A DNA stretch of 64,000 nucleotides from a virus. This document shows positions 2,798 through 59,692 of the stretch, piece by piece. Each line of letters starts with the position of its first letter. Position 1 is the first letter of the stretch. The position numbers and the translations under genes are program-made. A model generated the notes under the pieces. It ran no database searches, was not told the origin of the DNA, and worked only from the letters and a program-made list of their open reading frames with translations. Location: positions 4,106-68,105 of IMG/VR virus record IMGVR_UViG_3300028827_000091; one strand, 5' to 3'.

Positions 2798-2828
2798 TTT
2801 TCAGCCTAACTTCTGACTATATACTATT

Positions 2829-4334
2829 ATGTATTCTAAATCTGTTCGCCAATTCGCAAAAAAATATCAATCAAAATCAGCAAACGCTTTCATACGATTA
2901 ACTGAAAGTGTATCGTTACTTAAAAAAGAAACAAAATGGTTAGATGAATTAAATCCATCATTAAAATTTCGAATTCTTTGTGTCGTAAATAATTTAGAAG
3001 AAATTCCTAAATGCAAACATTGCAATAATAATACGTCAATTGAGAAAAGCTATAAATTATCTTTCAATAAATTTTGTTCTGAAGCCTGCAGAAAAAATTA
3101 TCGTAAAAAAGAAACTATTTCAAACAGAAAAAATAATAAAAAATTGAACGATAGTGATTGGTTATATTCTGCTCGTATTGAAAAGCGAATGTCATTAGAA
3201 AATATAGCCGATATCTTAAATGTTCCAGTATATGCAGTAAAAGAGCACATCAAAAAATATAATATACCTGAGGTTAAATATAATGAAAGCGACTCTTTAA
3301 CTAGAACAATTCTATCTTCGAAAGAAAAAATGAAAGAACTCTATGAAAGCAAGGACATCCGCACAATAGCTGATGAATTCGGAGTGTCAAATTATTGCAT
3401 CTGGTACTGGTTGAGGAAACATAATATAGAGCCAAAAGCCTCTAATGGGTATCCACGAAAAGTAAAGAAAATAAGCAACGAAGAAGAAGAGCTTGTTAAT
3501 TTTCTTCGAGAGATTTACAATGGCGAAATCATAACATCTGATAGGTCATTGCTAAAAGGTTCAGAGATTGATATTGTCATACCTGATTTGAAAATGTGCT
3601 TTGAATACAACGGATTATATTGGCACAGTGAGAAATACAAAGATAAGAATTATCATTCAAACAAAACAAAAGAAGCAAAGAAGCAAGGATATACACTATA
3701 TCATATTTTTTCTGATGATTGGAATTTGAAGAATAAAATATGGAAAAGCAGAATAAAGCATCTACTTGGTGTGACCGAACACAAAATTTATGCGAGAAAA
3801 TGCGTAGTCAAAGAGATTAGTTCTCAAATCAAAAATAAATTCTTAGAAGAAAACCATTTGCAAGGGAAAGATAAATCATCTTTCCGATTTGGATTATTCT
3901 TCAACAATGAACTTGTTGCTGTTATGACTTTTGGCAAATCACGATTCAATAGAAATATCGATTGGGAACTTGTACGATATGCGTGCCTAAATAATCATTC
4001 AATTGTAGGAGGATTCTCAAAACTTCTGACGGCAGCACGAAAAAAACTAAAGAATGGAACAATTGTCACATATGCAGATAATTCGTATTCTGATGGTAAT
4101 GTGTATCTTACTAATGGTTTCGTTGCTATTGCATCTTATCCAGCAGGATACAAATATACGAAAGATATGATGAAACGTGAAAACAGATTAAATTTCACAA
4201 AGCAACGCCTCAAAGCCAAATATAAAGATAAGAATTTTGCAGGAATGACTGAAAAGGATATATGTGAATCTCTAGGATACACACGAATTTGGGATTGTGG
4301 CACAACAACCTATGTCTTGGACAATTCTATATAG
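2829..4334 (+). CDS. Second Hef-like homing endonuclease (paralogue of 1370..2797, with HTH repeats)
   Basis: EIDIVIP..FEYNGLYWH; KIYARKC; NHLQG; RIWDCG. Confidence 0.75.
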   Translation: MYSKSVRQFAKKYQSKSANAFIRLTESVSLLKKETKWLDELNPSLKFRILCVVNNLEEIPKCKHCNNNTSIEKSYKLSFNKFCSEACRKNYRKKETISNRKNNKKLNDSDWLYSARIEKRMSLENIADILNVPVYAVKEHIKKYNIPEVKYNESDSLTRTILSSKEKMKELYESKDIRTIADEFGVSNYCIWYWLRKHNIEPKASNGYPRKVKKISNEEEELVNFLREIYNGEIITSDRSLLKGSEIDIVIPDLKMCFEYNGLYWHSEKYKDKNYHSNKTKEAKKQGYTLYHIFSDDWNLKNKIWKSRIKHLLGVTEHKIYARKCVVKEISSQIKNKFLEENHLQGKDKSSFRFGLFFNNELVAVMTFGKSRFNRNIDWELVRYACLNNHSIVGGFSKLLTAARKKLKNGTIVTYADNSYSDGNVYLTNGFVAIASYPAGYKYTKDMMKRENRLNFTKQRLKAKYKDKNFAGMTEKDICESLGYTRIWDCGTTTYVLDNSI

Positions 4335-7793: not shown

Positions 7794-8360
7794 ATGAACA
7801 AAACGAAAGATACTTCAACACATTACGTTTCAAACAAAGAGTTTCTACAAGACTTCATTGAATATAAAAAAGCAGTTTCAGACGCCGAACGTGAAGGTAA
7901 GCCCAAACCAAGATTGCCAGATTCAATAGGAATAAAAATAATGGCAATTGCGGAAAGGTTGTCGTTCAAGCCGAATTTCATCAATTATTTTTTCCGAGAA
8001 GAGATGGTTGAAGATGCAATAGAAAATTGTATAATGTATGCCGATAACTTCGACCCCGAAAAGAGTAAAAATCCTTTTTCGTACTTTACTCAAATATGTT
8101 ATTTTGCCTTCATTCGGCGCATCCAAAAAGAGAAGAAACATTTTCAGACCAAAGTCAAATATGTTCAGCGTGCATCAACACTTCTTCAAGAATCATCTAT
8201 TCAAGACCACGACACAGACGAAGACTATAAGAATTCATATCTTGAATTTTTGAGAGGATTCTATGATGTGGAGCTTGATGAAGAAGATGAGAAAAAAGAA
8301 AGAAAGAAAAGAGAAACAAAAACAACAACGGTTGACCTGACAGAGGTATGTGATGGCTAA
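7794..8360 (+). CDS. 55: Late transcription sigma factor gp55
   Basis: HYVSNKEF, KPNFINY, NFDPEKSKNPFSYFTQICYFAFIRRIQKEKK. Confidence 0.95.
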   Translation: MNKTKDTSTHYVSNKEFLQDFIEYKKAVSDAEREGKPKPRLPDSIGIKIMAIAERLSFKPNFINYFFREEMVEDAIENCIMYADNFDPEKSKNPFSYFTQICYFAFIRRIQKEKKHFQTKVKYVQRASTLLQESSIQDHDTDEDYKNSYLEFLRGFYDVELDEEDEKKERKKRETKTTTVDLTEVCDG

Positions 8361-9426
8361 AATCGCTATTCTTGGAGATACACATTTTGGTGCAAGGAAT
8401 GATTCAGAAGTGTTCAATGAATATTTCTTCAAGTTCTACGAAAATGTGTTTTTTCCGTATTGTGTAGAAAATGGCATTTCTAGAATCATTCAGACGGGCG
8501 ATTTTATGGATAGAAGAAAAAGCGTCAATTTCAAAATTCTTCACGAAACAAACAGAAGGTTTATGGATAAGCTCGCAGAGTTGATTCCTGATATTAAAAT
8601 TGATATGATTCCTGGAAATCACGACATCTACTATAGATACACAAACGAGATAAATTCTTTGAAAGAATTGTTTTCTTGGAGGGATTTTGTCGTTGTTCAC
8701 GACGAACAACCTACGACAATTGAAATTGATGGACTCAAAATTGATATGATTCCTTGGATTAACAAATACAATTTCAAGAATACTTTAGAATTCATTGAAA
8801 ACAGTATGAGCGACGTTTGTGTCGGTCACTTTGAAATTGTAGGTTTTGATATGCAGGCTGGAATCCCAGGACACGGCGGCCTAGATAGAAAGATATTCAG
8901 TCATTATGACTTGGTTCTTTCGGGCCACTATCATACAAAATCTGAAAAAGGAAACATACGGTATGTCGGTACGCCATATGAAATAACTTGGAGTGATTAT
9001 GACGACCCGAAAGGATTTCACGTTCTTGATACAGAATCAAGAGAATTAGAATTTATCAAGAATCCTTATAAAATGTTTCATAAAGCATTCTTTTGTTCAG
9101 ATGTCGATTATGAAGAATTTGATTTCAAAGAGCTAGAGGGCGGCATCGTGAAGGTCATTGTCAAAGATAGAAACGATAGCAAAAAATATGACTGGTTCTT
9201 AGATAAAATTATTGAAGCAATGCCGAATGATTTTTCTGTCGTTGAATCGGATGTTGTTCTAGTTGAAGGCGTTGATGCAGAATCCTTTGAGGCTCTAGAT
9301 ACTTTCACTGTTCTGAGAAATGCAGCAGCATCTGTTGCTGAATCAGAATCTCTCAACAAAAAGAAAATGCAGTCATTCATTCAAGAACTCTACACAGAAG
9401 CAGTGGCCCAAGGAAGAGACCAGTAG
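8350..9426 (+). CDS. 47: Recombination endonuclease gp47 (Mre11/SbcD-like)
   Basis: GDTHFG, GDFMD, GNHD, SGHYH. Confidence 0.93.
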   Translation: MMAKIAILGDTHFGARNDSEVFNEYFFKFYENVFFPYCVENGISRIIQTGDFMDRRKSVNFKILHETNRRFMDKLAELIPDIKIDMIPGNHDIYYRYTNEINSLKELFSWRDFVVVHDEQPTTIEIDGLKIDMIPWINKYNFKNTLEFIENSMSDVCVGHFEIVGFDMQAGIPGHGGLDRKIFSHYDLVLSGHYHTKSEKGNIRYVGTPYEITWSDYDDPKGFHVLDTESRELEFIKNPYKMFHKAFFCSDVDYEEFDFKELEGGIVKVIVKDRNDSKKYDWFLDKIIEAMPNDFSVVESDVVLVEGVDAESFEALDTFTVLRNAAASVAESESLNKKKMQSFIQELYTEAVAQGRDQ

Positions 9427-11196: not shown

Positions 11197-12015
11197 ATGA
11201 AGATACAAATTGGGTCAGATTTACATCGAGAATTTGTGCGTGACTGGTTCTCTAAGAATAGTCGAACTCGACTCTATGACCCTTCAGTTCCGCAGAATGA
11301 AAATATGACAAATCCTCTCGACCGAGCAGGTGAGTACGGTATTGGATTGCGCTTTTTCTTCGACAAAGTTGAGAATGTAGATATTCTCGTCCTTGCTGGT
11401 GATATTGAATATATGCGTCGGTTTGAGGATATGGATACTCTCTTTCGTGAAGGGCTGGAGCTTGCTCGGCACGTTGTTTATGTCCCGGGAAATCACGATT
11501 TTTATCGCTCTAGAATTTGCAAGATTCAAGAACTCAAAGAGAAATATACGAATTCAAAGAACATTCATATCCTTTACAACACATCTATAGATATTGAAGG
11601 TGTCAAGATTTTTGGCGGCACTCAATGGGGAAATCTAAATCCTGCTAACGAAATGACATATCGGTATAGCCTGAACGACTTTAGAAAAATCAAAATGTTC
11701 TCTCCTACTGATATGATAAGAGAACATTTGAAATTTCGAAATGCTCTAGAAAAGATGTTGCCTGATGTTGTCGTATCTCATTTTTTGCCTTGCACAAAAT
11801 CAATCCCTGCAAGATTCGCACACGATGCGATTATGAATGATTACTATTGCACAGATATGACACCATATTTTTATAATGTAAAACTTTGGATTCACGGTCA
11901 TACACACGATGCCTGTGACTACAATGTGGGCGACACTCGAGTTGTTTGTAATCCACACGGATATTTCGGCTATGAGAATATTGTTTTTGATAGAAAATTC
12001 GTTGTAGAAATTTGA
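11197..12015 (+). CDS. Calcineurin-like metallophosphoesterase
   Basis: SDLH, AGD, GNHD, HGHTH, NPHGY. Confidence 0.9.
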   Translation: MKIQIGSDLHREFVRDWFSKNSRTRLYDPSVPQNENMTNPLDRAGEYGIGLRFFFDKVENVDILVLAGDIEYMRRFEDMDTLFREGLELARHVVYVPGNHDFYRSRICKIQELKEKYTNSKNIHILYNTSIDIEGVKIFGGTQWGNLNPANEMTYRYSLNDFRKIKMFSPTDMIREHLKFRNALEKMLPDVVVSHFLPCTKSIPARFAHDAIMNDYYCTDMTPYFYNVKLWIHGHTHDACDYNVGDTRVVCNPHGYFGYENIVFDRKFVVEI

Positions 12016-17653: not shown

Positions 17654-18072
17654 ATCTAGAAGAAAAAGTAAACTGGAACAAGAATATGATGCTCGAAGTG
17701 TCGTTGCCTGAAAGCGACTCATTCCTGCAGGTAAAAGAAACACTCGAGAGGATTGGTATTGCAAATTTCCGCGAGAAGAAGCTGTATCAATCTTGCCATA
17801 TCTTGCAGAAGAAAGGCAAATATTATATTGTTCATTTCAAGGAGATGTTTGCTCTTGACGGCAAGAAGTACTCTCTGACAAAAGAGGATATCTATCGTCG
17901 CAATCACATTGCAAATCTTCTTTCTGACTGGGGTTTGGTAGAATTAAAGTCACCAGTTGAACTTGTTGAAGGTAAAGATAGACCAAAGGTTTTTGTTCTC
18001 AAACATTCGGAAAAATCTGAATGGGAACTTGTGTCTAAATATACAATCGGCACAGACAAGAAAGGAAATTAG
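17650..18072 (+). CDS. regA: Translational repressor RegA
   Basis: [37 protein letters not shown]. Confidence 0.95.
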
Positions 18073-18073
18073 T

Positions 18074-18619
18074 ATGTACGAGATTTCAAAAGAATTTCAT
18101 TTTGATTATGGACATCGGGTTTATACTCAAAACCTCAATGAAGATTTAGCCCTAACGTCTTTCTGTAAATGTAAAAGACTGCACGGCCATACTGGAAAAT
18201 TGGTTGTTCATTTATCTGCAAAGGATGTGGGTAGTGATGGGTTTGTGACAGACTTCAATCATCTTGCTTGGCTGAAAAAATTTATAGATGATGCTATCGA
18301 CCACAAATTCCTTATTGGTTCGGATGACCCACTCTTTTCAAAAATAACAGGCAAGAGTTTGTGGGATACTGTTCCCTATGCAGAAAAAAGCGAGATAGGT
18401 TCAGAGCTTCGTGTTTTTGTTAACAAAGACGATGAATTTGAAAGTTCTTTTGTTGTTGTTCCGTTCTGTCCAACAAGTGAAAATCTTGCAAAATGGATGT
18501 ATGATGTTGTTCAAGGAGTTATGTGGGAACACAAAGTTGCGGTTGAAGCTGTCAGATGGTCCGAAACACCAAAAACAGAAGCAGTCTATAAACCAGAAAA
18601 TGTTTTGAGGTTCAAATGA
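18074..18619 (+). CDS. queD: 6-carboxytetrahydropterin synthase QueD
   Basis: [29 protein letters not shown]. Confidence 0.9.
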
Positions 18620-19524
18620 AAAAAATTCTAATATCTGAAATATTCTATTCAATTCAAGGTGAAGGGTCGAGAGTCGGCATCCCTTCAATTTTTGTTCGTG
18701 TCTTTGGGTGCAATTTGAATTGTCCTGGCTTCGGCCAAGAACGAGGAAAACTGATGCCGGAAGAAGAAATGCCTCATAACAAATTCGATATATCTTCCAT
18801 TGACAAAATTGAGGATTTGCCTGTTTTTGATGTGGGATGCGATAGTTCTGCTTCGTGGTCGAAACGATATCGTCATCTTTCAAAATCATATTCTGTTCAA
18901 GAACTTTGGGAAGCAATCTCAAACATTCTAAAAGAACAGAGGAGCAGAACAGAAGTTGATTATGATATTCCCGATATCGTAATCACTGGAGGAGAACCAC
19001 TACTGCCTGCATATCAGAAATTTTGGATAGAGTTTTTCTCATATGAAAATGTTGATAGATATTTCGAAGGAGACATTGATACAGTCACTTTTGAAACGAA
19101 TGGAACACAAAAGCTTCTAGATGAATTTGAGTGGGTTGTTTCTGAAGAAATAAGAATGAATTTTGATTCCAATGAATTGCCAATAAGAAAAATAATTTTT
19201 TCTGTTTCGCCTAAATTGAGTATCTCTGGAGAACCAAGAGCAAAGGCAATCAAAGAATCGGTTCTCGAAGAATATATGAATCTTCTAGGTGAAGAAAATA
19301 TGTTCTTGAAATTTGTTGTTCGTGATGAAGAAGACATACAAGAAATATTCGATGTTGTTGGTGCTTCGATGATTTATTGTCCTGTCTATTTGATGCCAGA
19401 AGGTGCTACTGATAAAGGACTAGGATTAACAGAACGAAGGGTAGCTGAACTGGCAATGAAGTATGGATTTCGATTCAGCCCTAGATTGCAGGTTAATTTG
19501 TTTGGCAATACTTGGGGAACTTGA
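18616..19524 (+). CDS. queE: 7-carboxy-7-deazaguanine synthase QueE (radical SAM)
   Basis: [17 protein letters not shown] with distal CDS, ITGGEP, ETNGT, SPK. Confidence 0.92.
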
Positions 19525-19569
19525 TGAGGTTAGTTGTTGCTGGCTAAAGAGAATTTGATGAACAATACC

Positions 19570-19598
19570 TTGACAGAGATTGATAAATTTGATAGAAT
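19570..19598 (+). promoter_or_regulatory. Sigma70 promoter for folE
   Basis: TTGACA-N17-TAGAAT. Confidence 0.75.
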
Positions 19599-19621
19599 TG
19601 ATAATTTAAGAAGGAGAGTAG

Positions 19622-20302
19622 ATGGCTCATTCAGAATTAAAAGATAAAATAGAAGCTATGAAGATGGAAGGCACGCCATTTCTTTGCAATGACAATATTC
19701 CTGAACTTTCAGACAATGCTCGTGATGAATTGAGAGAAAATGTTGCAAAAGCGTTTCAAGGTGTTCTCGATGCTCTTTTAATTGATACCGAAAATGACCA
19801 CAACACAAAAGAAACAGCGCACCGTGTTGCAAAAATGTATGTAGATGAAATTTTCCGTGGTCGATATTATCCAAAACCAAAAATAACAGCGTTTCCCAAT
19901 TCAAAAGAATACGACCAAATCTATACTGTAGGGCCTATCAGTGTCAGGGCAACCTGTGCACACCATTTTCAGAATATTGTAGGTAAGTGTTGGGTGGGCG
20001 TCAAGCCTGGTAAAAAAGTCATTGGACTTTCAAAATTTAATCGTCTTGTAGATTGGATTTGTTCTAGACCAACAATTCAGGAAGAAATGACGGAACAAAT
20101 TGCTGATGAAATAGAAAGAACAACACAGGCGAAAGGCGTTGCTGTTGTTGTGAGAGCAGAACATCATTGTATGATTCATCGCGGTGTCAAAGAGCACGAA
20201 TCAGATATGGTGACATCGGTAATGCGTGGTGAATTTAGAGAAAATCCTAGTCTGAAAGCTGAATTTCTATCTTTAATAGATATGAAGAAAAATGGTTCAT
20301 AG
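19622..20302 (+). CDS. folE: GTP cyclohydrolase I FolE
   Basis: TCAHHF, IGLSKFNR, QEEMT, HHCMIHRGV. Confidence 0.95.
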   Translation: MAHSELKDKIEAMKMEGTPFLCNDNIPELSDNARDELRENVAKAFQGVLDALLIDTENDHNTKETAHRVAKMYVDEIFRGRYYPKPKITAFPNSKEYDQIYTVGPISVRATCAHHFQNIVGKCWVGVKPGKKVIGLSKFNRLVDWICSRPTIQEEMTEQIADEIERTTQAKGVAVVVRAEHHCMIHRGVKEHESDMVTSVMRGEFRENPSLKAEFLSLIDMKKNGS

Positions 20303-20307
20303 AATAT

Positions 20308-20748
20308 ATGACAATCAAAATTAAAGATGAGCAAGGAAATGAGCGTATTCTTAAGGTAGGATTCACCTGCGGCTCATTTGATTTGTTCCACGTAGGGCAT
20401 ATCCTTATGCTTGAAGAAGCACGGAAACATTGTGATTATCTAATAGTCGGTTGTCAGTCAGACCCTACTATCGATAGACCGAACAAGAATAAACCAATCC
20501 AGTCATTGAATGAAAGGGTCATACAGTTGGCCGCCTGCAGGTTTGTAGATGAAGTTGTTGTTTATGATACAGAACAAGATTTGTATGGGCTTCTGCAGAA
20601 AATAAATCCTGATGTTCGAATAATCGGTGAAGATTGGAAAGGCATAAATTTCACTGGGTATGATTTGCCCATTCCTGTCGTTTTCAATTCACGCCAACAC
20701 AATTTCTCCTCTTCAGAATTGCGCCAAAGAATAATAGATGCAGCATAA
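20308..20748 (+). CDS. Cytidylyltransferase (TagD/RfaE-like HxGH family)
   Basis: GFTCGSFDLFHVGH, FSSSELR. Confidence 0.88.
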   Translation: MTIKIKDEQGNERILKVGFTCGSFDLFHVGHILMLEEARKHCDYLIVGCQSDPTIDRPNKNKPIQSLNERVIQLAACRFVDEVVVYDTEQDLYGLLQKINPDVRIIGEDWKGINFTGYDLPIPVVFNSRQHNFSSSELRQRIIDAA

Positions 20749-20757
20749 GGATTATCG

Positions 20758-21630
20758 ATGAAGCAAGCGGCCTTTATTGTTTCGTATCTGGGAAGAGGTG
20801 ACCGAAGCCCTAGACTCTATTCTAAGCGTCTTAATTATCACCGACGCCAGTTGGAGTGGTTATGCACAGAAAAATCAATTGACAGGGTTTTTGTGCGTTC
20901 TCAGGGCTATAACGAAGATGAGATTAGGATATATGAATCGGATAAGATATCTTTCTTGCATTCTGATGAACCACAGCACCCAGGAATTGGAAGAAATGTT
21001 CTTCTGAGACATTTCTATAGCACCGATTACGACGTTGCTCATTTTATTGACAATGATTCGATTCTCTATGACCACATTTTCGGAAAATCGTTTTTTGAAA
21101 AATTGAGTGAAGTTTGGGAAAAGCCTCAGATGTCGAATGTTGCTGGTTTTCGGCCTATCATTCCTAGACACGAGCCGTTCACTGGCGACTATCGAGCTGA
21201 GAAAGAATTGAGAGACAATAATTTTGTTTTCAGAAAGAATCTTCATTTGAAGGGTTCTTTCTTCACGATTAGGAATTTTAGCAAATATGATAATGTAGAA
21301 ATATTTTTTGATGAGAAAATGTTTCAGATGGAAGATGATGAATTTGCGATGAAAATGCTCCAGCAAGGTTTGCATTTCTATAAATGTGAGAACATCGTTC
21401 TGAATGAAATGGCGAATGGGGAATATTCGGTTCTCTTTTCTGAGCAAGATAGGATGAAAGATGTGCAGAAATGGAAAGATTATATTGCTGAAAAGTATTC
21501 TTCGGTTGGAGTGAGAAAAAATTCAAAAGGAAATCTTGATAGGTCGTCATTTATCAAAAGGTTTTGGAAAGCGCCGAATGAGGTTGTTGTTCCACTCGAA
21601 GGCGCGTTTTCTCTTGACAATTTCTTTTAA
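20758..21630 (+). CDS. Putative GT-A glycosyltransferase
   Basis: GIGRNVLL..F, HFIDND (DxD-like), EDDEF acidic motif. Confidence 0.6.
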   Translation: MKQAAFIVSYLGRGDRSPRLYSKRLNYHRRQLEWLCTEKSIDRVFVRSQGYNEDEIRIYESDKISFLHSDEPQHPGIGRNVLLRHFYSTDYDVAHFIDNDSILYDHIFGKSFFEKLSEVWEKPQMSNVAGFRPIIPRHEPFTGDYRAEKELRDNNFVFRKNLHLKGSFFTIRNFSKYDNVEIFFDEKMFQMEDDEFAMKMLQQGLHFYKCENIVLNEMANGEYSVLFSEQDRMKDVQKWKDYIAEKYSSVGVRKNSKGNLDRSSFIKRFWKAPNEVVVPLEGAFSLDNFF

Positions 21631-21641
21631 GGTGGTATAAT
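21614..21641 (+). promoter_or_regulatory. Sigma70 promoter (extended -10, leaderless)
   Basis: TTGACA-N16-TATAAT preceded by TGG; ATG 7 nt downstream. Confidence 0.7.
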
Positions 21642-21648
21642 TGCGCGT

Positions 21649-22041
21649 ATGAATCTTGATTATTCTTCATATAAAAGCATTTTTGTTACCTTTGAATTTG
21701 AAGGTGAACATTATTGGAAAGACGCTCCGAGCGAAGTTGAATTTCTAAGGTATCCTCATCGCCATCTTTTCAAAATCAAAGTTGAGATGACAGTTCATCA
21801 TTTAGATAGAGAAGTCGAATTCATACTATTTAAGCGAGAACTGCAAGAACTTTTCGAGAATCGGAATTTCAACAATAAATCTTGCGAAATGATTTGTGAT
21901 GATATTGCAGAATATTTGGCAGATAAATATCCCGGAAGAACTTATACTATAAGCGTGTCGGAAGATGGAGAAAATGGTGCTATCGGAAAATATGTGTTCA
22001 AAGAAAAGAAGTATGAGAACCCTGTTCATATTACCGATTGA
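21649..22041 (+). CDS. Second QueD-like T-fold protein (candidate CDG decarboxylase, DpdM-like)
   Basis: FEGEHYW, HRHLF, DREVEF, SCEM, VSEDGENG. Confidence 0.65.
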   Translation: MNLDYSSYKSIFVTFEFEGEHYWKDAPSEVEFLRYPHRHLFKIKVEMTVHHLDREVEFILFKRELQELFENRNFNNKSCEMICDDIAEYLADKYPGRTYTISVSEDGENGAIGKYVFKEKKYENPVHITD

Positions 22042-23113
22042 GCCTATAGAAAATAGGTATCCTGCTCATTGGTATAGATATCTCCCAAAACAATTTGATG
22101 AATATTTTGAAAGAAGGTGTTCTGATAGATGGGAGCTTCGTGTTGTTCCGGGCCAATGTAGGAGCAATGATTCTGGTGACGTAGCTTTCTTAAATTTCAT
22201 CGACACAAATCTATGGAAATCTGAACAGATGCGTCGTGTTTCTGAGATGTTCGAAAAAGGCCAAGTCAAAGATGGTGATGTTTTCTTGGTGACCGATGCT
22301 TGGAATCCTGCCATTCACCAATTGAGATATATGTCTGAATTGACAGGAATCAAAGTCAGGATTGTAGGAGTCTGGCACGCCGGAAGCTATGATGATTGGG
22401 ATATTCTTGGTCAGACCTTCTCAAACAAAGAATGGTCTTACGGCCTTGAACGTTCTCTGTATGAAGTCTACGATACGAATATATTTGCAACAGAATTTCA
22501 TAAGAATATGTTCAAAGAAAAATTAAAGATTTCTACTCAAGATAAACCTTGGAAAAGCGTTGTTTGTGGTTTTCCAATGGAATATATGTTCAACGGAACA
22601 CTCAAAGAAGCAGAAATTTGTGCGCCAAAGAAAGATATGGTGATTTTCCCACATCGAAAGAGTAAAGAGAAACAGCACGACATTGCTGAAGATTTAGGAC
22701 GAGAATTAAAATCAATCGGAGTTGATTTTTATATCTGTCACGGAAAAGGATTGAGCATTGAAGAATATCACAAGAAACTTGCCGAAGCAAAAGTTGTTTT
22801 TTCTGCATCTTTGCAAGAGACCTTAGGCATTGCTCAATTTGAAGGGATGCTACACGGCGCAATCCCTATTCAGCCAAACCGATTATCCTATGAAGAAATG
22901 TATGACCCTATCTTCAATTATCCTTCAGAATGGACAGAAGACTATTGTTCATATAAGATGAATAGAGACAAATTAGTAGATTTCATTGTTGATAGTATGG
23001 AAGATAATGAAAGCATTTCTTCTCGATTAAAAGAAAATTATAGGTACATCTCAAGAAAATTTTTCACTGGCACCGAATTCTACTTCTATGTTCTTTTAGA
23101 TGGAGCAATATAA
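22013..23113 (+). CDS. GT-B (GT4-like) glycosyltransferase
   Basis: WHAGSYD, FPHRKSKEK, SASLQETLGIAQFEG (Ex7E), SYEEM. Confidence 0.75.
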   Translation: MRTLFILPIEPIENRYPAHWYRYLPKQFDEYFERRCSDRWELRVVPGQCRSNDSGDVAFLNFIDTNLWKSEQMRRVSEMFEKGQVKDGDVFLVTDAWNPAIHQLRYMSELTGIKVRIVGVWHAGSYDDWDILGQTFSNKEWSYGLERSLYEVYDTNIFATEFHKNMFKEKLKISTQDKPWKSVVCGFPMEYMFNGTLKEAEICAPKKDMVIFPHRKSKEKQHDIAEDLGRELKSIGVDFYICHGKGLSIEEYHKKLAEAKVVFSASLQETLGIAQFEGMLHGAIPIQPNRLSYEEMYDPIFNYPSEWTEDYCSYKMNRDKLVDFIVDSMEDNESISSRLKENYRYISRKFFTGTEFYFYVLLDGAI

Positions 23114-24298
23114 ATGAGAACGACAAGATATTTTCCAGCAGTTAGTTGCGCCACTTCTAGCTACCTCAAAAAGTCTGATAAAGAAATTTTTAGTACGTCA
23201 AAGTGCATTAAAAAGTCATTGAGGTTTTACAATAAAGACTGGGATAATTATTTTTATCATCCGGATGTTCTTTTTTCTGCTGCACATCACGCAAAGAAGT
23301 TTCCTGATATTCGATGCGGACTTCAAATAGATGATAAAGCCTGCATCTTTGTTGATTCGGGCGGTTATCAGCTTTCGTCTGGAGCTCTTTCTGAAAAGAG
23401 TTGGAATAACAAAATAGCACTCGAATGGTCGGAAAATAACGGGACAATTTTTCCTATTCTTGACCGACCTGTTACTGGTAGCGTTTCAGAAGGCGAGATA
23501 AAAAGATGTCTTGAGCTTTCTGCAGATGCTGCAAAATATTACTATGAAAATCGCTCGAATTCTGCCTGTTCAATTCTGAATGTTCTTTCAGCAAAAAATG
23601 TTCCCGAAATGGAACGCTGGTATAGAGCAGTTTCTCCATACGAGTTTGACGGCTGGGCACACGGCGGAACGAACAGAAATTTCAAAGCAACACTGAAAGG
23701 AATCTTTTTTCTTCTGAAGAAAGGAGAATACGAGAAAGAAAATATAAAATTCCATCATATTTTCGGTGTGTCTCGTATGGATGCAATGATTTACTTTGCT
23801 GCCATTCAGAAGAACTTGAATAGTATGGGAATTGATGTTCAAATAACATTTGATAGCTCATATTTTCAGAGAAATTTGGCCTTCGGTGGTTATTTCATTT
23901 TTCCAGGATATACTGGTATTCAGCAAATATATTATTCGAACAGGAACAAATATGAGCATTTACCAGATGATTTAGGATTACCTTGTGATTGTCCAGTGTG
24001 TTCGACTATTCCGAGCATAAAAGACTGGCTTTCTGACCCTAGAGATTTTTATATGCTCGGACTCGAACATAATTTGTTCTTAATGCTCAGATACAAAAAA
24101 TCTATTGATTCTCTAATCAATATGAATATGCCAGAAGTTTTTTCTGCATCATTTCCTGCAGAAGTGACGAAAAATGTTCGTGCAATATACAAAGCATTTA
24201 ATAATCTTGATGCTGCATATGAAATCATCGATAGAGAATTTACAACAAAGAATACAGAAGAAGATAAATCATCTTTAGAAAGTTTCTTTGGAGAATAG
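23114..24298 (+). CDS. TGT-fold guanine transglycosylase, DpdA-like
   Basis: FVDSGGYQ, ILD, HIFGV, TFDSS, PCDCPVC...EHN zinc site. Confidence 0.8.
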   Translation: MRTTRYFPAVSCATSSYLKKSDKEIFSTSKCIKKSLRFYNKDWDNYFYHPDVLFSAAHHAKKFPDIRCGLQIDDKACIFVDSGGYQLSSGALSEKSWNNKIALEWSENNGTIFPILDRPVTGSVSEGEIKRCLELSADAAKYYYENRSNSACSILNVLSAKNVPEMERWYRAVSPYEFDGWAHGGTNRNFKATLKGIFFLLKKGEYEKENIKFHHIFGVSRMDAMIYFAAIQKNLNSMGIDVQITFDSSYFQRNLAFGGYFIFPGYTGIQQIYYSNRNKYEHLPDDLGLPCDCPVCSTIPSIKDWLSDPRDFYMLGLEHNLFLMLRYKKSIDSLINMNMPEVFSASFPAEVTKNVRAIYKAFNNLDAAYEIIDREFTTKNTEEDKSSLESFFGE

Positions 24299-27025: not shown

Positions 27026-28021
27026 ATGGACTTTGAAAAAACAATCGTTTGTGAAATGTTATTCGGTAGTCATTTGTATGGTACGAGTACGCCTGAATCA
27101 GACAAAGATTTCTTCGGCGTCTATATGCCATCTTTGAATGAAGTTCTTTCTGGTCAGGTTCAGGATGTTATCAATCTATCAACCGCTTCATCTGATAGCA
27201 AGAATACTTCGGAAGATGTTGACCGCACCTTTTATTCGTTTCCAAAATTTATTCGCGAAGTTATCAAGGGCAACACAACGGCTCTTGATATGTTGCACGC
27301 GCCAGATTCTGCTCTTCTATATACATCTGATGTGTGGAAGGCCTTGCGCGAAAATCGTTCAAAAGCATACACAAAAAATATGAGAACATTTGTAGGATAT
27401 GTTCGCACACAGGCAAACAAGTACGGAGAAAAAGGTCGTAGAGTAAATGTTGTAAAAGCAGCATTGAAACTCTGTGAGAGTATCCGAAACAAAGAAGATA
27501 AATTGGAAGATTATTGGGAATTTTTGCCAGTCAATAACGAACACGCGAAGATTGTTATAATCGAACACGAACAGCTTGGAACTCAATATTTCTATGAAAT
27601 CTGCTCTAGAAAATTCCAGAGCACAATCACGTTTCACGAATTCGAATCTCGTCTCAAATCACTTCTTGATTCGTACGGCGAACGCGCCAGAACAGCGGCC
27701 GATTCAAAGGGAGTTGATTGGAAAGCAGTGATGCACGCATTTCGTGCTGGTTATCAGGCACGAGCAATTTTCAAGGAAGGCGATTTCACCTATCCTTTGC
27801 CTGAAACAGAATTCTTGAAAGAGGTTCGTTTGGGAAAGTTGAATTTCAAAGATGATGTATCTCCTAAACTTGATGCTCTTGTGCGTGAAGTTGAGGAACT
27901 ATCTGAACTTTCTGATTATCCTGCAGAAGTTGATAAGGAATTCTGGGTAAATTTGATGCTTGAAGTTTATAAAGATGTTTTCGGATTGAAGACAGAAAAT
28001 CCTGCAGGATATATTCAATAA
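27026..28021 (+). CDS. Pol-beta superfamily nucleotidyltransferase
   Basis: GSHLYGTSTPESDKD, DWKAVMHAFR. Confidence 0.8.
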   Translation: MDFEKTIVCEMLFGSHLYGTSTPESDKDFFGVYMPSLNEVLSGQVQDVINLSTASSDSKNTSEDVDRTFYSFPKFIREVIKGNTTALDMLHAPDSALLYTSDVWKALRENRSKAYTKNMRTFVGYVRTQANKYGEKGRRVNVVKAALKLCESIRNKEDKLEDYWEFLPVNNEHAKIVIIEHEQLGTQYFYEICSRKFQSTITFHEFESRLKSLLDSYGERARTAADSKGVDWKAVMHAFRAGYQARAIFKEGDFTYPLPETEFLKEVRLGKLNFKDDVSPKLDALVREVEELSELSDYPAEVDKEFWVNLMLEVYKDVFGLKTENPAGYIQ

Positions 28022-30904: not shown

Positions 30905-31975
30905 ATGAGCAATAAAAAATATAAACTTGCTGTCTATATAGGCAGATTTCAACCTTTTCATAACGGTCACCGAAAAGTTATTGAAGAAGGACTAGAGATA
31001 GCTGATAGTGTTCTTGTTCTTCTCGGTTCCTTCAATACTCCACGAACAATCAAGAATCCCTTCACAAAATTTGAACGAAAAAAGATGATAAGTTGTTTCT
31101 TCAACGACAACATATCACACGATGCTTCTCATAGAGTCTATATTCGACCTATAAGCGATTACACTTATGACGAGAATAAATGGATTGAGCAGATTCAAAC
31201 AAAAGTCAAACTCTTTTCTGTTTCTGATAAAGAAATCGTCTTGCTTGGTTTCAAGCGCGACGATAGCAGCTATTATCTGAATTATTTTCCTAATTGGCAC
31301 ACATATTTTTCTGCAGAGCATCATCATTACAACGAACCTATAAATGGAACTGCGTTACGTGATGCTTATTTCTCAAATCCTGCAGAATTTTTCTCGAGTT
31401 ATTATGTGGATATGTTGCCTTCAACAACAATAGAAGTTATGAAGGAATTTGCCCGCAAAGAAGAATTCAAACAGTTGCAGAACGAATGGAAATATGTTCA
31501 GAATTACAAGGATATGTGGTCATCTGCTCCATATCCGCCTACCTTTGTGACAGCAGATGCTGTTGTCATTCAATCAGGACATATCCTTCTTGTTCAAAGA
31601 AAGTATGAGCCTGGCAAAGGCTTGTGGGCACTTCCTGGTGGATTTGTTGCCCCAAATGAAAAGATTTTTGATTGTGCAGTGAGAGAGCTGATTGAAGAAA
31701 CGAACATCAAGGTTCCGGAGAAAGTTCTTCGAGCTTCTTGTACCTTCAATCAGGTGTTCGATAGTCCTTTTCGTTCTGATAGAGGAAGAACCATCACTCA
31801 CGCATTTCTTTTTGAATTGAAAGATAATGAGAAGTTGCCTAAAGTGAAGGCAGCCGATGATGCTGAAGATGCAAAATGGTTTTCGTTTTCTGAGCTCGAA
31901 AGTATGGCTTGGAAAATGTTCGAAGACCACTTTCATATCCTCTATCATATGAGGAAAAGGCATAAAATAAAATAG
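30905..31975 (+). CDS. Bifunctional NMN adenylyltransferase / Nudix hydrolase (NadM-Nudix, NatV-like)
   Basis: IGRFQPFHNGH; PPTFVTADAVV; Nudix box GG...RELIEET. Confidence 0.92.
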   Translation: MSNKKYKLAVYIGRFQPFHNGHRKVIEEGLEIADSVLVLLGSFNTPRTIKNPFTKFERKKMISCFFNDNISHDASHRVYIRPISDYTYDENKWIEQIQTKVKLFSVSDKEIVLLGFKRDDSSYYLNYFPNWHTYFSAEHHHYNEPINGTALRDAYFSNPAEFFSSYYVDMLPSTTIEVMKEFARKEEFKQLQNEWKYVQNYKDMWSSAPYPPTFVTADAVVIQSGHILLVQRKYEPGKGLWALPGGFVAPNEKIFDCAVRELIEETNIKVPEKVLRASCTFNQVFDSPFRSDRGRTITHAFLFELKDNEKLPKVKAADDAEDAKWFSFSELESMAWKMFEDHFHILYHMRKRHKIK

Positions 31976-32023
31976 CTCTATTGGAGCTTATCCAATAAAT
32001 TTAAGAAGTTAGGGAGTCTAACA

Positions 32024-33337
32024 ATGAGAAATAACATCCTATTAAATACCGATAGCTATAAAACATCACATTTTCGTCAGTATCCGCCTGGAACAGAATA
32101 TGTTTATTCTTATATTGAAGCTCGTTCTGGTCAGGTACCTTATGTAATCGCATTTGGTTTACAAGCATTTATTAAAGAATATCTTCAGAAGCCCTTTTTT
32201 CAAGAAGATATTGATGAAGCAGAATATGTGTTCTCCTCTCACGGTGTGCCGTTTAATCGTGAAGGTTGGGAATACATTTTGGAAGAGCACGGTGGATATT
32301 TGCCGCTAGAAATAAGAATGGTTGAAGAAGGAACAAAAGTTCCCATAAGAACTGTTATTGCAACGATGGTGAACACCGACCCAAAGGTTCCTTGGCTCAC
32401 GAATTATATGGAAACAGCAATTCTCCGAGCAATTTGGTATCCTACGACAGTTGCAACAAATTCACATTTCGCAAAAGTTGAAATGATGAAGTATTGGGAA
32501 AAGACTTCTGATGCGCCAGTTGAGTCTCTCGATTTCAAGTTGCACGATTTTGGTGCTCGTGGTGTTTCTTCAAATGAATCTGCTGCATTGGGAGGAATGG
32601 CGCATCTAATCAATTTTATGGGTACAGATACTGTTGCTGGTTTGATTGCAGCAAGAGATTATTATGATGCGGGAATTTGCGGGTTTTCTATTCCAGCAGC
32701 AGAGCACAGCACAATCACATCTTGGGGTATTGAAAATGAATCTGCTGCATACAAGAATATGATAGAGGCATTTCCTGATGCTCCGATTGTTGCGATTGTT
32801 TCTGATTCCTATGACCTCAAGAATGCAGTAGAAAATATCTACGGCAACGAGTTGAAGAGTGTAATAGAAGAATCAGGAAAAACAGTTGTAATTCGCCCCG
32901 ATTCAGGATATCCTCCTGAAATTGTTGTGGAAACAATTCTTGGTCTGATGAAAAATTTTGGATGCGCAACGAACAGCAAAGGATATAAGGTTCTTCCTGA
33001 TTGTGTTCGGGTAATTCAAGGCGACGGAATCACCAATGAATCACTAAAGGATATTCTCAAGTATATGGAAGAAAATAAATTGAGCATTGATAATATCGCT
33101 TTCGGTATGGGCGGTGGCCTTTTACAGCAATGCAATCGAGACACATATGGGTTTGCGATGAAGTGTTCTGCAATTTGTGTGAATGGTGTGTGGAAAGATG
33201 TGTTCAAGAATCCTAAGACTGACCCAGGTAAGGCATCGAAATCTGGTCGTTTTGGTCTTTCTAGGATTGCTTTCAAGGATGGTGAACTCGTGACAAAGAC
33301 AACTTTTGAGAAAGTTCGCAAGAACGCTTCTATTTAA
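32024..33337 (+). CDS. nadV: Nicotinamide phosphoribosyltransferase
   Basis: TDSYKTSH, LHDFGARG, SIPAAEHS, IRPDSG, IQGDG, FGMGGGLLQ. Confidence 0.95.
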   Translation: MRNNILLNTDSYKTSHFRQYPPGTEYVYSYIEARSGQVPYVIAFGLQAFIKEYLQKPFFQEDIDEAEYVFSSHGVPFNREGWEYILEEHGGYLPLEIRMVEEGTKVPIRTVIATMVNTDPKVPWLTNYMETAILRAIWYPTTVATNSHFAKVEMMKYWEKTSDAPVESLDFKLHDFGARGVSSNESAALGGMAHLINFMGTDTVAGLIAARDYYDAGICGFSIPAAEHSTITSWGIENESAAYKNMIEAFPDAPIVAIVSDSYDLKNAVENIYGNELKSVIEESGKTVVIRPDSGYPPEIVVETILGLMKNFGCATNSKGYKVLPDCVRVIQGDGITNESLKDILKYMEENKLSIDNIAFGMGGGLLQQCNRDTYGFAMKCSAICVNGVWKDVFKNPKTDPGKASKSGRFGLSRIAFKDGELVTKTTFEKVRKNASI

Positions 33338-40152: not shown

Positions 40153-40635
40153 ATGGATGTATATGCAGAAGTCAAGAAAGAAAGATTGATGCAAGATTTG
40201 AAGTGGGGTGGCTCTAATCGACAGCGTTTCTATAATTCTCATAACTGGATAGTTTCTATTATCAACCAGTTAGGTGCAGCAGCAAAAACACCTTTTGACA
40301 TTGACAACTTTCGTCGTCAAATGGTAAAAGCTGCCGCACTGGCAATTGCAGCATATGAAAGCTCTTTAGAATGGGAGAGCAGGCCAACCTCAGAAGAATC
40401 TGTGGCTGATGTCGAAGAAAGTTCATCAGATAAATCTGTTCCAATGATAATTGTCGAACGGTCGATTGCAGATGAACCCGAGTTACCCGGCACAATGCCA
40501 GATGACATTTGGGAAGTGATATCTAACGATAAGGATGCTGCAACAGAGCTTCTTCGTGAAGCGGTTCGAATGACAAAATTAGGAATATTGAGGCGAGTCA
40601 AATTTTATTCTCAAGAAGACACAGAGAAAGAATGA
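40153..40635 (+). CDS. MazG-like fold protein with C-terminal extension
   Basis: ERLMQDLKWG...RQMVKAAALAIAAYES. Confidence 0.5.
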   Translation: MDVYAEVKKERLMQDLKWGGSNRQRFYNSHNWIVSIINQLGAAAKTPFDIDNFRRQMVKAAALAIAAYESSLEWESRPTSEESVADVEESSSDKSVPMIIVERSIADEPELPGTMPDDIWEVISNDKDAATELLREAVRMTKLGILRRVKFYSQEDTEKE

Positions 40636-40915
40636 AAGAAAATTCTCATTTAGATTTTTTCTTGCATAAATAATATAATGTTATCATTCACAAAAGGAGC
40701 CAATTCAGTGAAGACGCTGATATTCAATAGAGAAAAATCGCTGATTCTGAATAGTCTTCTTGCGCCTGCGAGAAGTTGGCTCAATATTTTCTTGTATCGA
40801 CCTATTCAATTTCATAAGGTATCATTTTTATAGGGGTCAGGCCCAAATTCATTTAAGAGCTTGCCCCACAAAAACACAGAAGGGGGAAGCAAATCACATA
40901 GACACAAAAAAGAAC

Positions 40916-40944
40916 TTGACAACAAGAAAACAACAAATTATAAT
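40916..40944 (+). promoter_or_regulatory. Sigma70 promoter of the tRNA/tmRNA array
   Basis: TTGACA-N17-TATAAT. Confidence 0.85.
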
Positions 40945-40990
40945 TGCGTTGTTGGATAAATGTTTTGTTCTTTACAATTCATTCATATAT

Positions 40991-41064
40991 GGGGCTGTAG
41001 TTCAGTTTGGGAGAACGCTTCCCTTGCAAGGAAGAGGTCGCCGGGTCGGAGCCGGCCAGCTCCA
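40991..41064 (+). tRNA. tRNA-Ala(TGC), no encoded CCA, atypical T-loop
   Basis: GGGGCTG/CAGCTCC with G3-U70; CTTCC-CTTGCAA-GGAAG. Confidence 0.88.
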
Positions 41065-41065
41065 C

Positions 41066-41158
41066 GCCTAACAAGATGAAAGCCTCCACGCGGCGTTAGG
41101 TGGTAACAGATGAATGACCTGTTTCGGTAGAGATAAGGGACATCTGGCTAATTTCATC
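41066..41158 (+). ncRNA. HDV-like (theta-type) self-cleaving ribozyme
   Basis: P1 GCCTAAC/GTTAGGT, P2 GATGAAA/TTTCATC, P3 GCC/GGC, L3 TCCACGC, J1/4 GG, P4 CAGATG/CATCTG, J4/2 GCTAA. Confidence 0.85.
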
Positions 41159-41167
41159 ATTTTGAAT

Positions 41168-41242
41168 GGGTCCGAAGCATTGTTGGCGATGCACCAGACT
41201 TTTAATCTGGGGAACGGGGTTCGACTCCCTGCGGGCCTACCA
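41168..41242 (+). tRNA. tRNA-Lys(TTT)
   Basis: CCAGA-CTTTTAA-TCTGG; TTCGA; CCA. Confidence 0.9.
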
Positions 41243-41246
41243 TTTT

Positions 41247-41321
41247 GCCCTTGTCGTTCAATGGATAGGACAACGGTCTTCTAAACCGTGAATCGGGGTT
41301 CGACTCCCTGCAAGGGCGCCA
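41247..41321 (+). tRNA. tRNA-Arg(TCT)
   Basis: ACGGT-CTTCTAA-ACCGT; CCA. Confidence 0.93.
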
Positions 41322-41353
41322 GTTTGAAAGCCAGGCTTTCAAATATTACAAAT

Positions 41354-41701
41354 GGGGCTGAAATAGTATCGATTAAGATTCGGAGCATTTGTAAGCACGC
41401 AGGTAGGCTGACCACCTTAAACGTTGGCAGTAAAATAGTCGCAAACGACGACGCACCGATAGCGCAAGCAGCGTAATCACCTCTATCAGATACTCGCCAT
41501 TCGGTGTTTGAAAAGAGGTCATTTAGAGTGGCTAGAATAGAATCATAGTGATAATTCTATTTGAAATTTTATCACTTGAGATATGGATTTGTATTTGCTG
41601 GTTTCGAGGCCATATCAAAAATTTAGGATAACCAGATAAGCGTGTAGAAATCACTTGTGAAGGTTTTAAGACGGCGGAGGCAGAGCCGCCCAGCTCCACC
41701 A
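41354..41701 (+). ncRNA. ssrA: tmRNA; tag ANDDAPIAQAA (41441-41476)
   Basis: 5' GGGGCTG, 3' CAGCTCCACCA with G3-U70; resume context TAGTC-GCA-AAC-GAC; tag ends in AA then stop. Confidence 0.93.
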
Positions 41702-41712
41702 AAATATTATCT

Positions 41713-41791
41713 GCGTCCCTACGCAAATTGGCAAAGCGGCCAGACTTAGAATCTGGTGATTTTCAGGGTTCGACTCCCTGGGGGCGTACCA
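41713..41791 (+). tRNA. tRNA-Leu(TAG), short variable arm
   Basis: CCAGA-CTTAGAA-TCTGG; CCA. Confidence 0.88.
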
Positions 41792-41799
41792 ATAAGTAT

Positions 41800-41876
41800 G
41801 GCGTTCATCTTCTAACGGCTAAGAACACCGGCTGTGACCCGGTCAATGGAGGGTTCGATTCCCCCTGAACGCCCCA
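41800..41876 (+). tRNA. tRNA-His(GTG)
   Basis: ACCGG-CTGTGAC-CCGGT; G-1:C73. Confidence 0.88.
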
Positions 41877-45480: not shown

Positions 45481-45553
45481 GCGCCTATGGTGTTAATTGA
45501 TAGCATAGTCGACTTCCATTCGACAGGTGTGGGTTTGAGCCCCACTAGGCGCT
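45481..45553 (+). tRNA. tRNA-Gly(TCC), divergent, no CCA
   Basis: GCGCCTA/TAGGCGC; GTCGA-CTTCCAT-TCGAC; D-loop lacks GG; T-loop TTTGAGC. Confidence 0.7.
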
Positions 45554-45555
45554 TT

Positions 45556-45788
45556 CTTTGAGAAGCTGACAACTTCTCCGGCAAACCAAAGATGTCGTTA
45601 TTATTTCTTTGGAGGTTCTCAGGTGTCCTCATCATCTGCCGACCGCAAGAATCGGTTATTTCTTGTTCCAATGCTATGGATGGATTATTTCATAGCCGGC
45701 ATCGACACTTGCCGTAACCCAGTGAATTGCGGTTTAGATGTTGCCGCTTGTCAAAAAACATCCAGTGGTGAGGTCGCGAACTCACCAC
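45556..45788 (+). ncRNA. Orphan structured RNA between tRNAs
   Basis: Stems GAGAAG/CTTCTC, CCAAAGA/TCTTTGG, GCTATG/CATAGC and terminal GTGGTGAG-GTCGCGAA-CTCACCAC. Confidence 0.45.
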
Positions 45789-59086: not shown

Positions 59087-59692
59087 ATGGAATATTTAGA
59101 GACATTTTCTCTTTGGTATGAACATAATGTTGATGCACCACTTGATAAAATCGAAGAAGAATTCGACCCAATGTCTGTGCCTAAAAAGCGAACAAAGAAA
59201 GCTGAACTTTTTCTAGGAAGAATGCAGCCAGTTCATTTGGGTCATATAAAAATAATCAAGAAGATGAAGAATCCTATTGTTGTTTTGGTGAAAGGTGCGA
59301 AGAGTTCTCAAGATAAAACAAGAAATCCTTTGAACGCAGAAGACCAAATTCGTCTACTCAGAAAAGTAATTCCGAATTTGAAGATAATTGTTGTGAAAGT
59401 CGGATATCTTCCTGATATATTTTCTGACCTTCGTGAATCTGGAAATTATGAGATAACAACCGTCTATTCGGGCGCGGACAGAATCAACGCCTATAAGAAA
59501 CAAATTGATTCAATCAACAAGAAGTTGCCAAAAGATAGAAAGTTTGATGTGAAGTTCAAAGAAACAGAACGATTCACAAGTGCGACAAAAGTTCGAGAAC
59601 TGATTCGTTCAGGAAACGAAGAAGAGTTCAAGAAACTGATGCCGAAAGAGCTTCACAACGAATTCAAATTTCTACGCAAAAAGATATCGTAA
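59087..59692 (+). CDS. HxGH cytidylyltransferase-like protein
   Basis: GRMQPVHLGH, NPL, GADR, SATKVR. Confidence 0.8.
   Translation: MEYLETFSLWYEHNVDAPLDKIEEEFDPMSVPKKRTKKAELFLGRMQPVHLGHIKIIKKMKNPIVVLVKGAKSSQDKTRNPLNAEDQIRLLRKVIPNLKIIVVKVGYLPDIFSDLRESGNYEITTVYSGADRINAYKKQIDSINKKLPKDRKFDVKFKETERFTSATKVRELIRSGNEEEFKKLMPKELHNEFKFLRKKIS

Follow-up and report, generated by a model that had tools for sequence, protein, structure and literature searches.

A predicted HDV-like ribozyme with a theta-type core and a P4 domain behind a tRNA-Ala gene of a T4-like phage

The hepatitis delta virus (HDV) ribozyme is marked by a G1·U wobble, by the helix P1.1 formed between L3 and J1/4, and by a catalytic cytosine at the start of J4/2, and ribozymes of this class leave a 2',3'-cyclic phosphate on the 5' product and a 5'-OH on the ribozyme itself. 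Theta ribozymes are minimal HDV-like ribozymes of gut Caudoviricetes, typically phages of Bacteroidota or Bacillota, that do without P4 (Kienbeck et al. 2024, PMC10879173). According to the parts of that article and its supplement used here, more than 80% of them come from gut phages, in 58% the cut site lies no more than 5 nt from a phage tRNA 3' end, and only 4.5% of the associated tRNAs encode CCA. Their published layout runs from a P1 of 6-7 through a J1/2 of 1-3, a P2 of 7, P3, T, CC, NCGY, P3', P1', GG and a J4/2 starting with C to a P2' of 7 (PMC10879173), with an L4 of 5-8 nt (PMC10879173 supplementary file 2), and the P1.1 combinations CC/GG, TC/GA and GC/GC co-vary among the listed theta ribozymes (PMC10879173). 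Here we describe a related element at 41066-41158 of a 64,000-nt stretch of viral DNA (IMG/VR record IMGVR_UViG_3300028827_000091, positions 4,106 to 68,105), to which we refer as the window; the element and the promoter-like, tRNA and tmRNA features around it lie on its plus strand. Judged from its sequence, the element is very probably a real HDV-like ribozyme. That it is active, combines a theta core with a P4 domain and has the role of forming the 3' end of tRNA-Ala is the reading that we consider probable.

Structure of the element and its junction with tRNA-Ala

Parsed by hand, 41066-41158 forms without a mismatch a nested double pseudoknot in the order P1-P2-P3-P3'-P1'-P4-P4'-P2', in agreement with a parser and with a descriptor. 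The 5' strand of P1 (GCCUAAC, 41066-41072) starts at G41066, the G1 of the ribozyme, and makes 7/7 pairs with the 3' strand (GUUAGGU, 41095-41101), the helix being closed at its base by the wobble G41066·U41101. J1/2 (AA, 41073-41074) leads into the 5' strand of P2 (GAUGAAA, 41075-41081), which forms 7 Watson-Crick pairs with the 3' strand at the far end of the element (UUUCAUC, 41152-41158). P3 (GCC/GGC, 41082-41084 with 41092-41094) encloses L3 (UCCACGC, 41085-41091), of which C41086 and C41087 pair with G41103 and G41102 of J1/4 (GG, 41102-41103) to give P1.1. The P4 domain (41104-41147) is a two-part helix of 44 nt, with an outer helix of 6 bp (41107-41112 with 41141-41146) and an inner helix of 8 bp (41118-41125 with 41130-41134 and 41136-41138) capped by a GGUA loop, and it is followed by J4/2 (CUAA, 41148-41151), in which C41148 takes the position of the catalytic cytosine. 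Sequence and parser support every segment other than P4; in addition, Rfam supports both strands of P1, P3 with its loop, and J4/2, the descriptor both strands of P2 and J4/2, covariation the GG of J1/4, and the covariance model R1 (see below) the 5' strand of P1, while P4 is backed by folding and R1. A preliminary description of this locus had proposed a complete nested double pseudoknot from G41066 with a G1-U wobble, UCC in L3, GG in J1/4, a candidate catalytic C41148 within GCUAA and an extended P4, and all of these elements were recovered where it had placed them.

Folded alone, the P4 domain reached -13.5 kcal/mol with z = -3.28, and 0/200 shuffles were as stable. The minimum free energy fold of a 306-nt transcript contained the tRNA cloverleaf, P1, P3 and P4 all together.

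The Rfam model RF02682 (HDV-F-prausnitzii) aligned end to end (model 1-74/74) at exactly 41066-41158, with E = 0.0011 on 361 nt and 4.8e-5 when searched as a single family over the 68-kb record. In an all-family Rfam scan, the window gave one HDV-like match, that to RF02682, and none to any further ribozyme family at E up to 5; the other HDV-like Rfam families, RF00094 included, gave no match at E up to 10. Because P2 and P1.1 do not contribute to the score of the Rfam model, we wrote a general descriptor of our own, consisting of a P3 of 3 bp, an L3 with C and then C/U at positions 2 and 3, a P1 of 7 bp, GG, a P2 of 5 bp or more directly adjoining P3, and a J4/2 of the form C-N-R-A. Applied to both strands of the window, it found a single locus, 41066-41158. 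Decoys in which the catalytic C was changed to A, G or U gave 0 matches in the window, and any descriptor match occurred in 2/200 dinucleotide shuffles and one with a P2 of at least 7 bp in 0/200, numbers that serve as a guide and not as a formal test, since the descriptor was composed after the sequence had been seen.

Upstream of the ribozyme lies tRNA-Ala(UGC) (40991-41064; Rfam 56.3 bits), with the acceptor stem GGGGCUG/CAGCUCC, which includes G3:U70, and with A41064 as discriminator. C41065 follows, being both tRNA position 74 and ribozyme position -1, and then G41066, with the predicted scissile bond at 41065/41066; ARAGORN ends the tRNA at 41065 (40991-41065), Rfam at 41064. The ribozyme thus begins 2 nt after the discriminator of a tRNA that has no encoded CCA, just as the preliminary description had it. 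CCA is encoded by 27/29 tRNAs of the window and by its transfer-messenger RNA (tmRNA), the exceptions being tRNA-Ala (A-C|G) and tRNA-Gly(UCC). Two tRNA-Ala genes of cultured phages, ~80% identical to this one, have ...CUCCACCA in place of the window's ...CUCCAC|GCC, and this alignment puts the start of the ribozyme in the place of the second C of CCA. In the related T4-like contigs L140, L144, L145 and L134, nearly all plus-strand tRNAs carry CCA, including the tRNA-Ala of L140.

The T-loop of tRNA-Ala, GUCGGAG, departs from the usual UUCGAAU, which is kept by tRNA-Lys of the window and by the two related phage tRNA-Ala. We also observed that tRNA-Ala (41040-41064) and the phage tmRNA (41670-41701) have the acceptor stem in common, and that the T-loops of both are unusual, with GAG at their end (GUCGGAG and AGGCAGAG, respectively). 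A hairpin, GAGAAG...CUUCUC, stands 3' of tRNA-Gly(UCC) (window 45481-45600).

Relatives in viral contigs

Upon searching public viral contigs (IMG/VR) with a core pattern made of the window's P3-L3-P3' plus U-GG, 15 fixed bases in all, we obtained at least 125 viral loci. A complementary P1 5' strand was present 12-20 nt upstream of the core, most often at 16, in 95/125 of the matches listed, compared to a chance expectation of ~10%, and many different P1 sequences occurred among them. The closest relative among the matches listed, the L003 type, has the same segment lengths and the same J1/2 AA as the window; its outer P4 and J4/2 are nearly those of the window (CAGAUG...CAUCUGGCUAA), and its P1 and P2 differ wholly in sequence with the complementarity kept. 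Against RF02682 (gathering score 44), the core-sharing relatives L003 and L009 scored 50 bits and 44.6 bits.

We built a covariance model, R1, exclusively from 10 L003-type sequences; two MAFFT alignments (A1, A2) had been dropped as its basis, their 3' half being too poor. R1 found one match in the window, which spans 41066-41158 and scores 46.3 bits (approximate E, 7.5e-9). Part of this score is built in, since 15 bases of the window had served to retrieve the training sequences. The 68-kb record likewise held one match.

Covariation was assessed on R1's alignment of 57 matches, 49 of them distinct, which is fitted to P1, P3 and P4 and so favors those helices. Across the 49 distinct sequences, covariation was seen at 7/7 pairs of P1 (99.4% paired), 6/6 pairs of P4 and 1/3 pairs of P3, and P1.1 was 97.9% paired; the first P1 pair was GU in 29/49, AU in 12 and GC in 4. 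P2, which lies outside R1, showed covariation at 7/7 pairs and was 71% paired, minimal forms being misaligned there. Upon shuffling, 0/500 alignments reached the observed covariation score, the share of paired cells or the count of cells changed on both sides, and the observed number of 22 pairs with a both-side change was equalled in 2/500. When the partners were slid by 1-3 columns, pairing fell from 91% to 36-53%.

Some contigs carry two HDV-like ribozymes within 300 nt (L003, 385-465 and 614-685; L009, 386-452 and 657-737; L120, 286-352 and 557-619), and the second member of such pairs has a different P3 (ACC/GGU), showing covariation of P3.

A scan anchored on tRNA T-loops gave 22 loci, comprising 15 ribozymes at the 3' end of a tRNA called by ARAGORN, 3 behind a tmRNA-like 3' end, 2 without P1 and 2 doubtful cases. 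The segment from GG to J4/2 (L4) measured 17-23 nt in 9/15 tRNA-linked cases, enough for a short P4 stem, so that P4-bearing forms next to tRNAs cannot be called rare among public viral contigs. The junction found in the window, discriminator plus C | G1, recurred behind tRNA-Glu (L193), tRNA-Thr (L196) and tRNA-Leu (L202); in other cases the cut falls immediately past the discriminator or past CCAU. The next tRNA begins 2 nt past the ribozyme in the L193 and L202 types (tRNA-Gly) and 4 nt past it in the L003 type (tRNA-Thr).

The same core also stands at the 3' end of CCA-less phage tmRNAs, in L010/L192 (~384-454), L083/L198 (~285-340) and L203; Rfam confirms a tmRNA ending at the start of the ribozyme for L010/L192 and L083/L198, and L203 is assigned by resemblance alone. 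In L003, L015, L017, L029, L031, L045, L051 and L055, a stable hairpin and not a tRNA precedes the ribozyme. The 3' ends of these hairpins lie 0-5 nt from the cut site, an arrangement that may be a way to form a hairpin-protected 3' end of a transcript.

Proposed 3'-end formation and competing readings

A sigma-70-type promoter-like site, TTGACA-17-TATAAT (40916-40944; 12/12 consensus, the best of 4 in 40600-41800), is found ~47 nt upstream of tRNA-Ala, and given this perfect consensus tRNA-Ala would be the first gene of its transcript. Past the ribozyme, a spacer of 9 nt (41159-41167) separates it from tRNA-Lys(UUU) (41168-41242), and the transcript continues with tRNA-Arg(UCU) (41247-41321), a one-piece tmRNA (41354-41701) and further tRNAs. 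Both tRNA-Lys and tRNA-Arg encode CCA and are called by ARAGORN and Rfam; the tmRNA also encodes CCA, matches RF00023 over the entire model (112.3 bits, 1-374/374) and carries the tag ANDDAPIAQAA as read by ARAGORN. The element accordingly separates the first tRNA from the remainder of the tRNA/tmRNA operon, as the preliminary description had stated, and the in-silico tests support that description's central proposal of an HDV-like ribozyme positioned to cut behind tRNA-Ala.

We propose that the operon would be transcribed from the consensus promoter at 40916-40944 and that the ribozyme would fold behind tRNA-Ala and cut co-transcriptionally between C41065 and G41066. The tRNA-Ala released in this way would have A73-C74 as its 3' terminus and would bear a 2',3'-cyclic phosphate there. 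The ribozyme would retain a 5'-OH and, together with the 9-nt spacer, would serve tRNA-Lys as a 5' leader until its presumed removal by RNase P, and through these two steps the inter-tRNA spacer would be excised without any 3' endonuclease. The end of tRNA-Ala would then be dephosphorylated and completed with C75-A76, most likely by the CCA-adding enzyme of the host or by some other healing activity. As tRNA-Gly(UCC) is also without CCA, we infer that infected cells must in any case have a CCA-adding activity.

The preliminary description had further put forward the phage phosphoesterase and nucleotidyltransferases as candidates for end repair, a suggestion that proved weak. Two of the three nucleotidyltransferases, the NMNAT-Nudix protein at 30905-31975, beside a nicotinamide phosphoribosyltransferase, and a cytidylyltransferase-like protein at 59087-59692, look like parts of nicotinamide adenine dinucleotide (NAD) metabolism, namely NAD salvage, and one of the two phosphoesterase matches (8350-9426) is a nuclease of the SbcD/gp47 type. 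The metallophosphoesterase at 11197-12015 has a family-level name only. An enzyme of the RlaP family is encoded at 27026-28021; this family has a member in T4 itself and shows little nucleoside triphosphate specificity, according to the part of the source used here (PMC12776372). A PDB sequence search with the metallophosphoesterase and the RlaP protein gave 0 matches. No polynucleotide kinase or RNA ligase was found among the open reading frames (ORFs) scanned, in a record that amounts to ~37% of the genome.

Several findings weigh against our reading, in addition to the built-in share of the R1 score and the fitting of the covariation alignment. RF02682 scores 29.3 bits versus its gathering score of 44 and is not reported at gathering thresholds, and with all 4227 families over the whole window its E is 0.19. 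Folded without pseudoknots, the 95-nt stretch had z = -1.05, with 28/200 shuffles as stable; such an unremarkable pseudoknot-free fold is usual for pseudoknotted RNAs but gives no support either. The fold modelled for the 306-nt transcript adds an eighth pair to P1, in which C41065 is joined to the 3' side of the helix, and this pairing could compete with P1.1. Furthermore, tRNA-Gly(UCC) (45481-45553) is without CCA and yet without a ribozyme, hence a missing CCA alone is not diagnostic; the search for a second ribozyme behind this tRNA returned only chance-level Rfam matches at E up to 10. Cleavage would also block the end of a tRNA to which CA has yet to be added, and no dedicated healing enzyme was identified among the ORFs scanned.

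The searches for orthologs add to these points. When 1021 nt were compared by blastn with cultured phages, only tRNA-level matches in 4 records were obtained and an ortholog of the cassette was not found, the 106-nt ribozyme stretch had no match among cultured phages, and two specific patterns hit 0 loci in the IMG/VR viral contigs. As no cassette ortholog was found, the covariation described above comes from relatives, with none for the window locus itself. In Ruegeria phage RpAliso the matching tRNA-Ala is annotated as ending 31 nt before the next tRNA, which leaves no room for a ribozyme, and R1 had no match in the loci of RpAliso and Erythrobacter phage XM05. UvsX-based relatives of the phage (65 loci, at most ~60% identical) yielded 0 ribozymes with the descriptor over 832 kb, and R1 likewise yielded 0 over 838 kb in 67 loci that include the two cultured phages, indicating that the element is sporadic in the lineage. 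A search of sequencing runs found no RNA data set with the phage, only three DNA rows of small share from one study. A scan of metagenomes with a pattern that turned out too loose gave at least 120 loci, of which 0/115 distinct ones had a P1; we rejected them as having arisen by chance in GC-rich DNA, and the scan is uninformative on orthologs.

The sub-threshold Rfam score, the unexceptional pseudoknot-free fold, and the ortholog and RNA evidence that was not found would all suit an inactive relic or a chance look-alike, with tRNA-Ala matured by host nucleases. We regard this as very unlikely, given that the helices are free of mismatches and the conserved single-stranded residues intact, that the element is placed exactly at the end of the tRNA, that P4 has z = -3.28, and that descriptor matches arose in just 2/200 shuffles, and in 0/200 at a P2 of at least 7 bp. 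An assignment of the stretch to a circularly permuted, two-piece tmRNA gene (ARAGORN 41149-41567; RF04321 41013-41476) has next to nothing to recommend it: the RF04321 match does score 54.4 bits, above its gathering score of 47, and ARAGORN does give the label 'tmRNA*', but the one-piece tmRNA at 41354-41701 is complete (RF00023, 112.3 bits, with CCA), and the RF04321 match extends from tRNA-Ala over the ribozyme and two intact tRNAs into the 5' part of the tmRNA. We rejected this candidate as an artefact of a tRNA-Ala upstream of a complete tmRNA, the match to RF04321 arising because the two share acceptor and T-arm sequence.

A ribozyme that is real and active and was selected for something other than tRNA-Ala maturation is unlikely in our estimate, although it deserves more weight than the two readings just discussed. 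It might be a self-detaching 5' leader that gives tRNA-Lys, tRNA-Arg and the tmRNA a 5'-OH precursor, it might uncouple the downstream RNAs from the promoter-proximal part, or it might be a passenger that arrived with a foreign cassette containing the CCA-less tRNA-Ala. In line with such roles, the L003 type, the closest by P4 and J4/2, lacks a detectable upstream tRNA and has instead a hairpin reaching up to the cut site, and tRNAs start close behind the ribozyme (tRNA-Thr at 4 nt in L003, tRNA-Gly at 2 nt in L193/L202, tRNA-Lys at 9 nt in the window). The absence of the ribozyme from the 65 related T4-like loci points the same way, as does tRNA-Ala itself, which stands apart from the other tRNAs of the window by its missing CCA and whose T-loop is off the usual UUCGAAU of tRNA-Lys and the two related phage tRNA-Ala. 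However, a cut 1 nt past the discriminator is also the junction behind three other tRNA types in unrelated contigs, RNase P removes a 5' leader unaided, and the published theta set, in the part of the source used here, is defined by cut sites at tRNA 3' ends (PMC10879173).

Two more far-reaching readings, which we weighed jointly, are rather improbable. One of them takes the cut as a deliberate gate and not just as trimming: the 2',3'-cyclic phosphate at C74 would make an exonuclease-proof, uncharged tRNA-Ala, with an odd T-loop as in the tmRNA, that is usable only after specific healing and addition of CA. Were this true, the healing step would set when, or in which host state, tRNA-Ala competes with the tmRNA for alanyl-tRNA synthetase. 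The other takes theta-core ribozymes with or without P4 as a general 3'-end-forming module of environmental phages, which in that event would act behind tRNAs, tmRNAs and hairpin-ended transcripts.

The phage and comparison with known ribozymes

The window belongs to a T4-like phage, as marked by a major head protein, a gp43-type polymerase, UvsX, gp41 and gp61 homologues, a clamp, a clamp loader and a late sigma factor. Long reading frames are open under table 11 and 0/29 tRNAs are suppressors, in keeping with the standard-code T4-like phage of the preliminary description. Elsewhere in the window, two tandem homing/HNH-endonuclease-like genes (475 and 501 aa) directly follow the major head protein gene (1370-4334), and a cluster at 17957-24298 encodes QueD-like, QueE-like, GTP cyclohydrolase I and weakly TGT-like proteins, which we take to be a set of the kind linked to 7-deazaguanine modification. 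An NAD salvage pair, consisting of the NMNAT-Nudix fusion and nicotinamide phosphoribosyltransferase, lies at 30905-33337.

The element shares with the HDV ribozyme (RF00094) the nested double pseudoknot, the G1·U, P1.1 and the C at the start of J4/2, and differs from it in that the RF00094 model finds no match in the window at E up to 10 and in that the processing of a rolling-circle replicon is an unrelated context. It is like RF02682 in its P4 architecture and in the GGCUAA that precedes P2 in both, whereas its P4 is 25-27 nt longer than that of the model.

With theta ribozymes the agreement is closer, and every segment of the window element but L4 falls within the lengths and sequences given in the part of the source used here (PMC10879173), with a P1 of 7 bp from G, a J1/2 of 2 nt, a P2 of 7 bp, P3 as GCC/GGC, L3 as T-CC-ACGC, GG and CTAA. 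As in that set, the cut site lies at a tRNA 3' end within +/-5 nt (G41066 follows the ARAGORN end by 1 nt and the Rfam end by 2 nt), the associated tRNA is without CCA, and the host of the element is a tailed phage. Unlike the 5-8 nt of theta ribozymes, however, the L4 segment of the window is a 44-nt two-part P4 helix, so that the element does not have the minimal form, and it occurs in a T4-like, standard-code phage as one ribozyme among 29 tRNAs. As the absence of P4 is what defines theta ribozymes, the element is more aptly classed with P4-bearing HDV-like ribozymes such as RF02682, placed in a theta context.

In the literature searched, which leaves most subscription journals outside, we found neither P4-bearing HDV-like phage ribozymes that flank a tRNA or tmRNA nor tmRNA-flanking HDV-like ribozymes in general; to the extent that the sources used here cover it, cutting at tRNA 3' ends by HDV-like ribozymes is described there only for the P4-less theta type, mostly of recoded gut phages. 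The locus also raises the question of how the tRNA would be freed of its 2',3'-cyclic phosphate prior to completion of CCA, which the part of PMC10879173 used here does not address. What is new here is that a theta core and a full P4 are predicted to be combined, behind one CCA-less tRNA among 27 that encode CCA, in a T4-like phage with the standard code. The P4-bearing relatives behind several tRNA types and behind phage tmRNAs suggest that the published motif undercounts the class.

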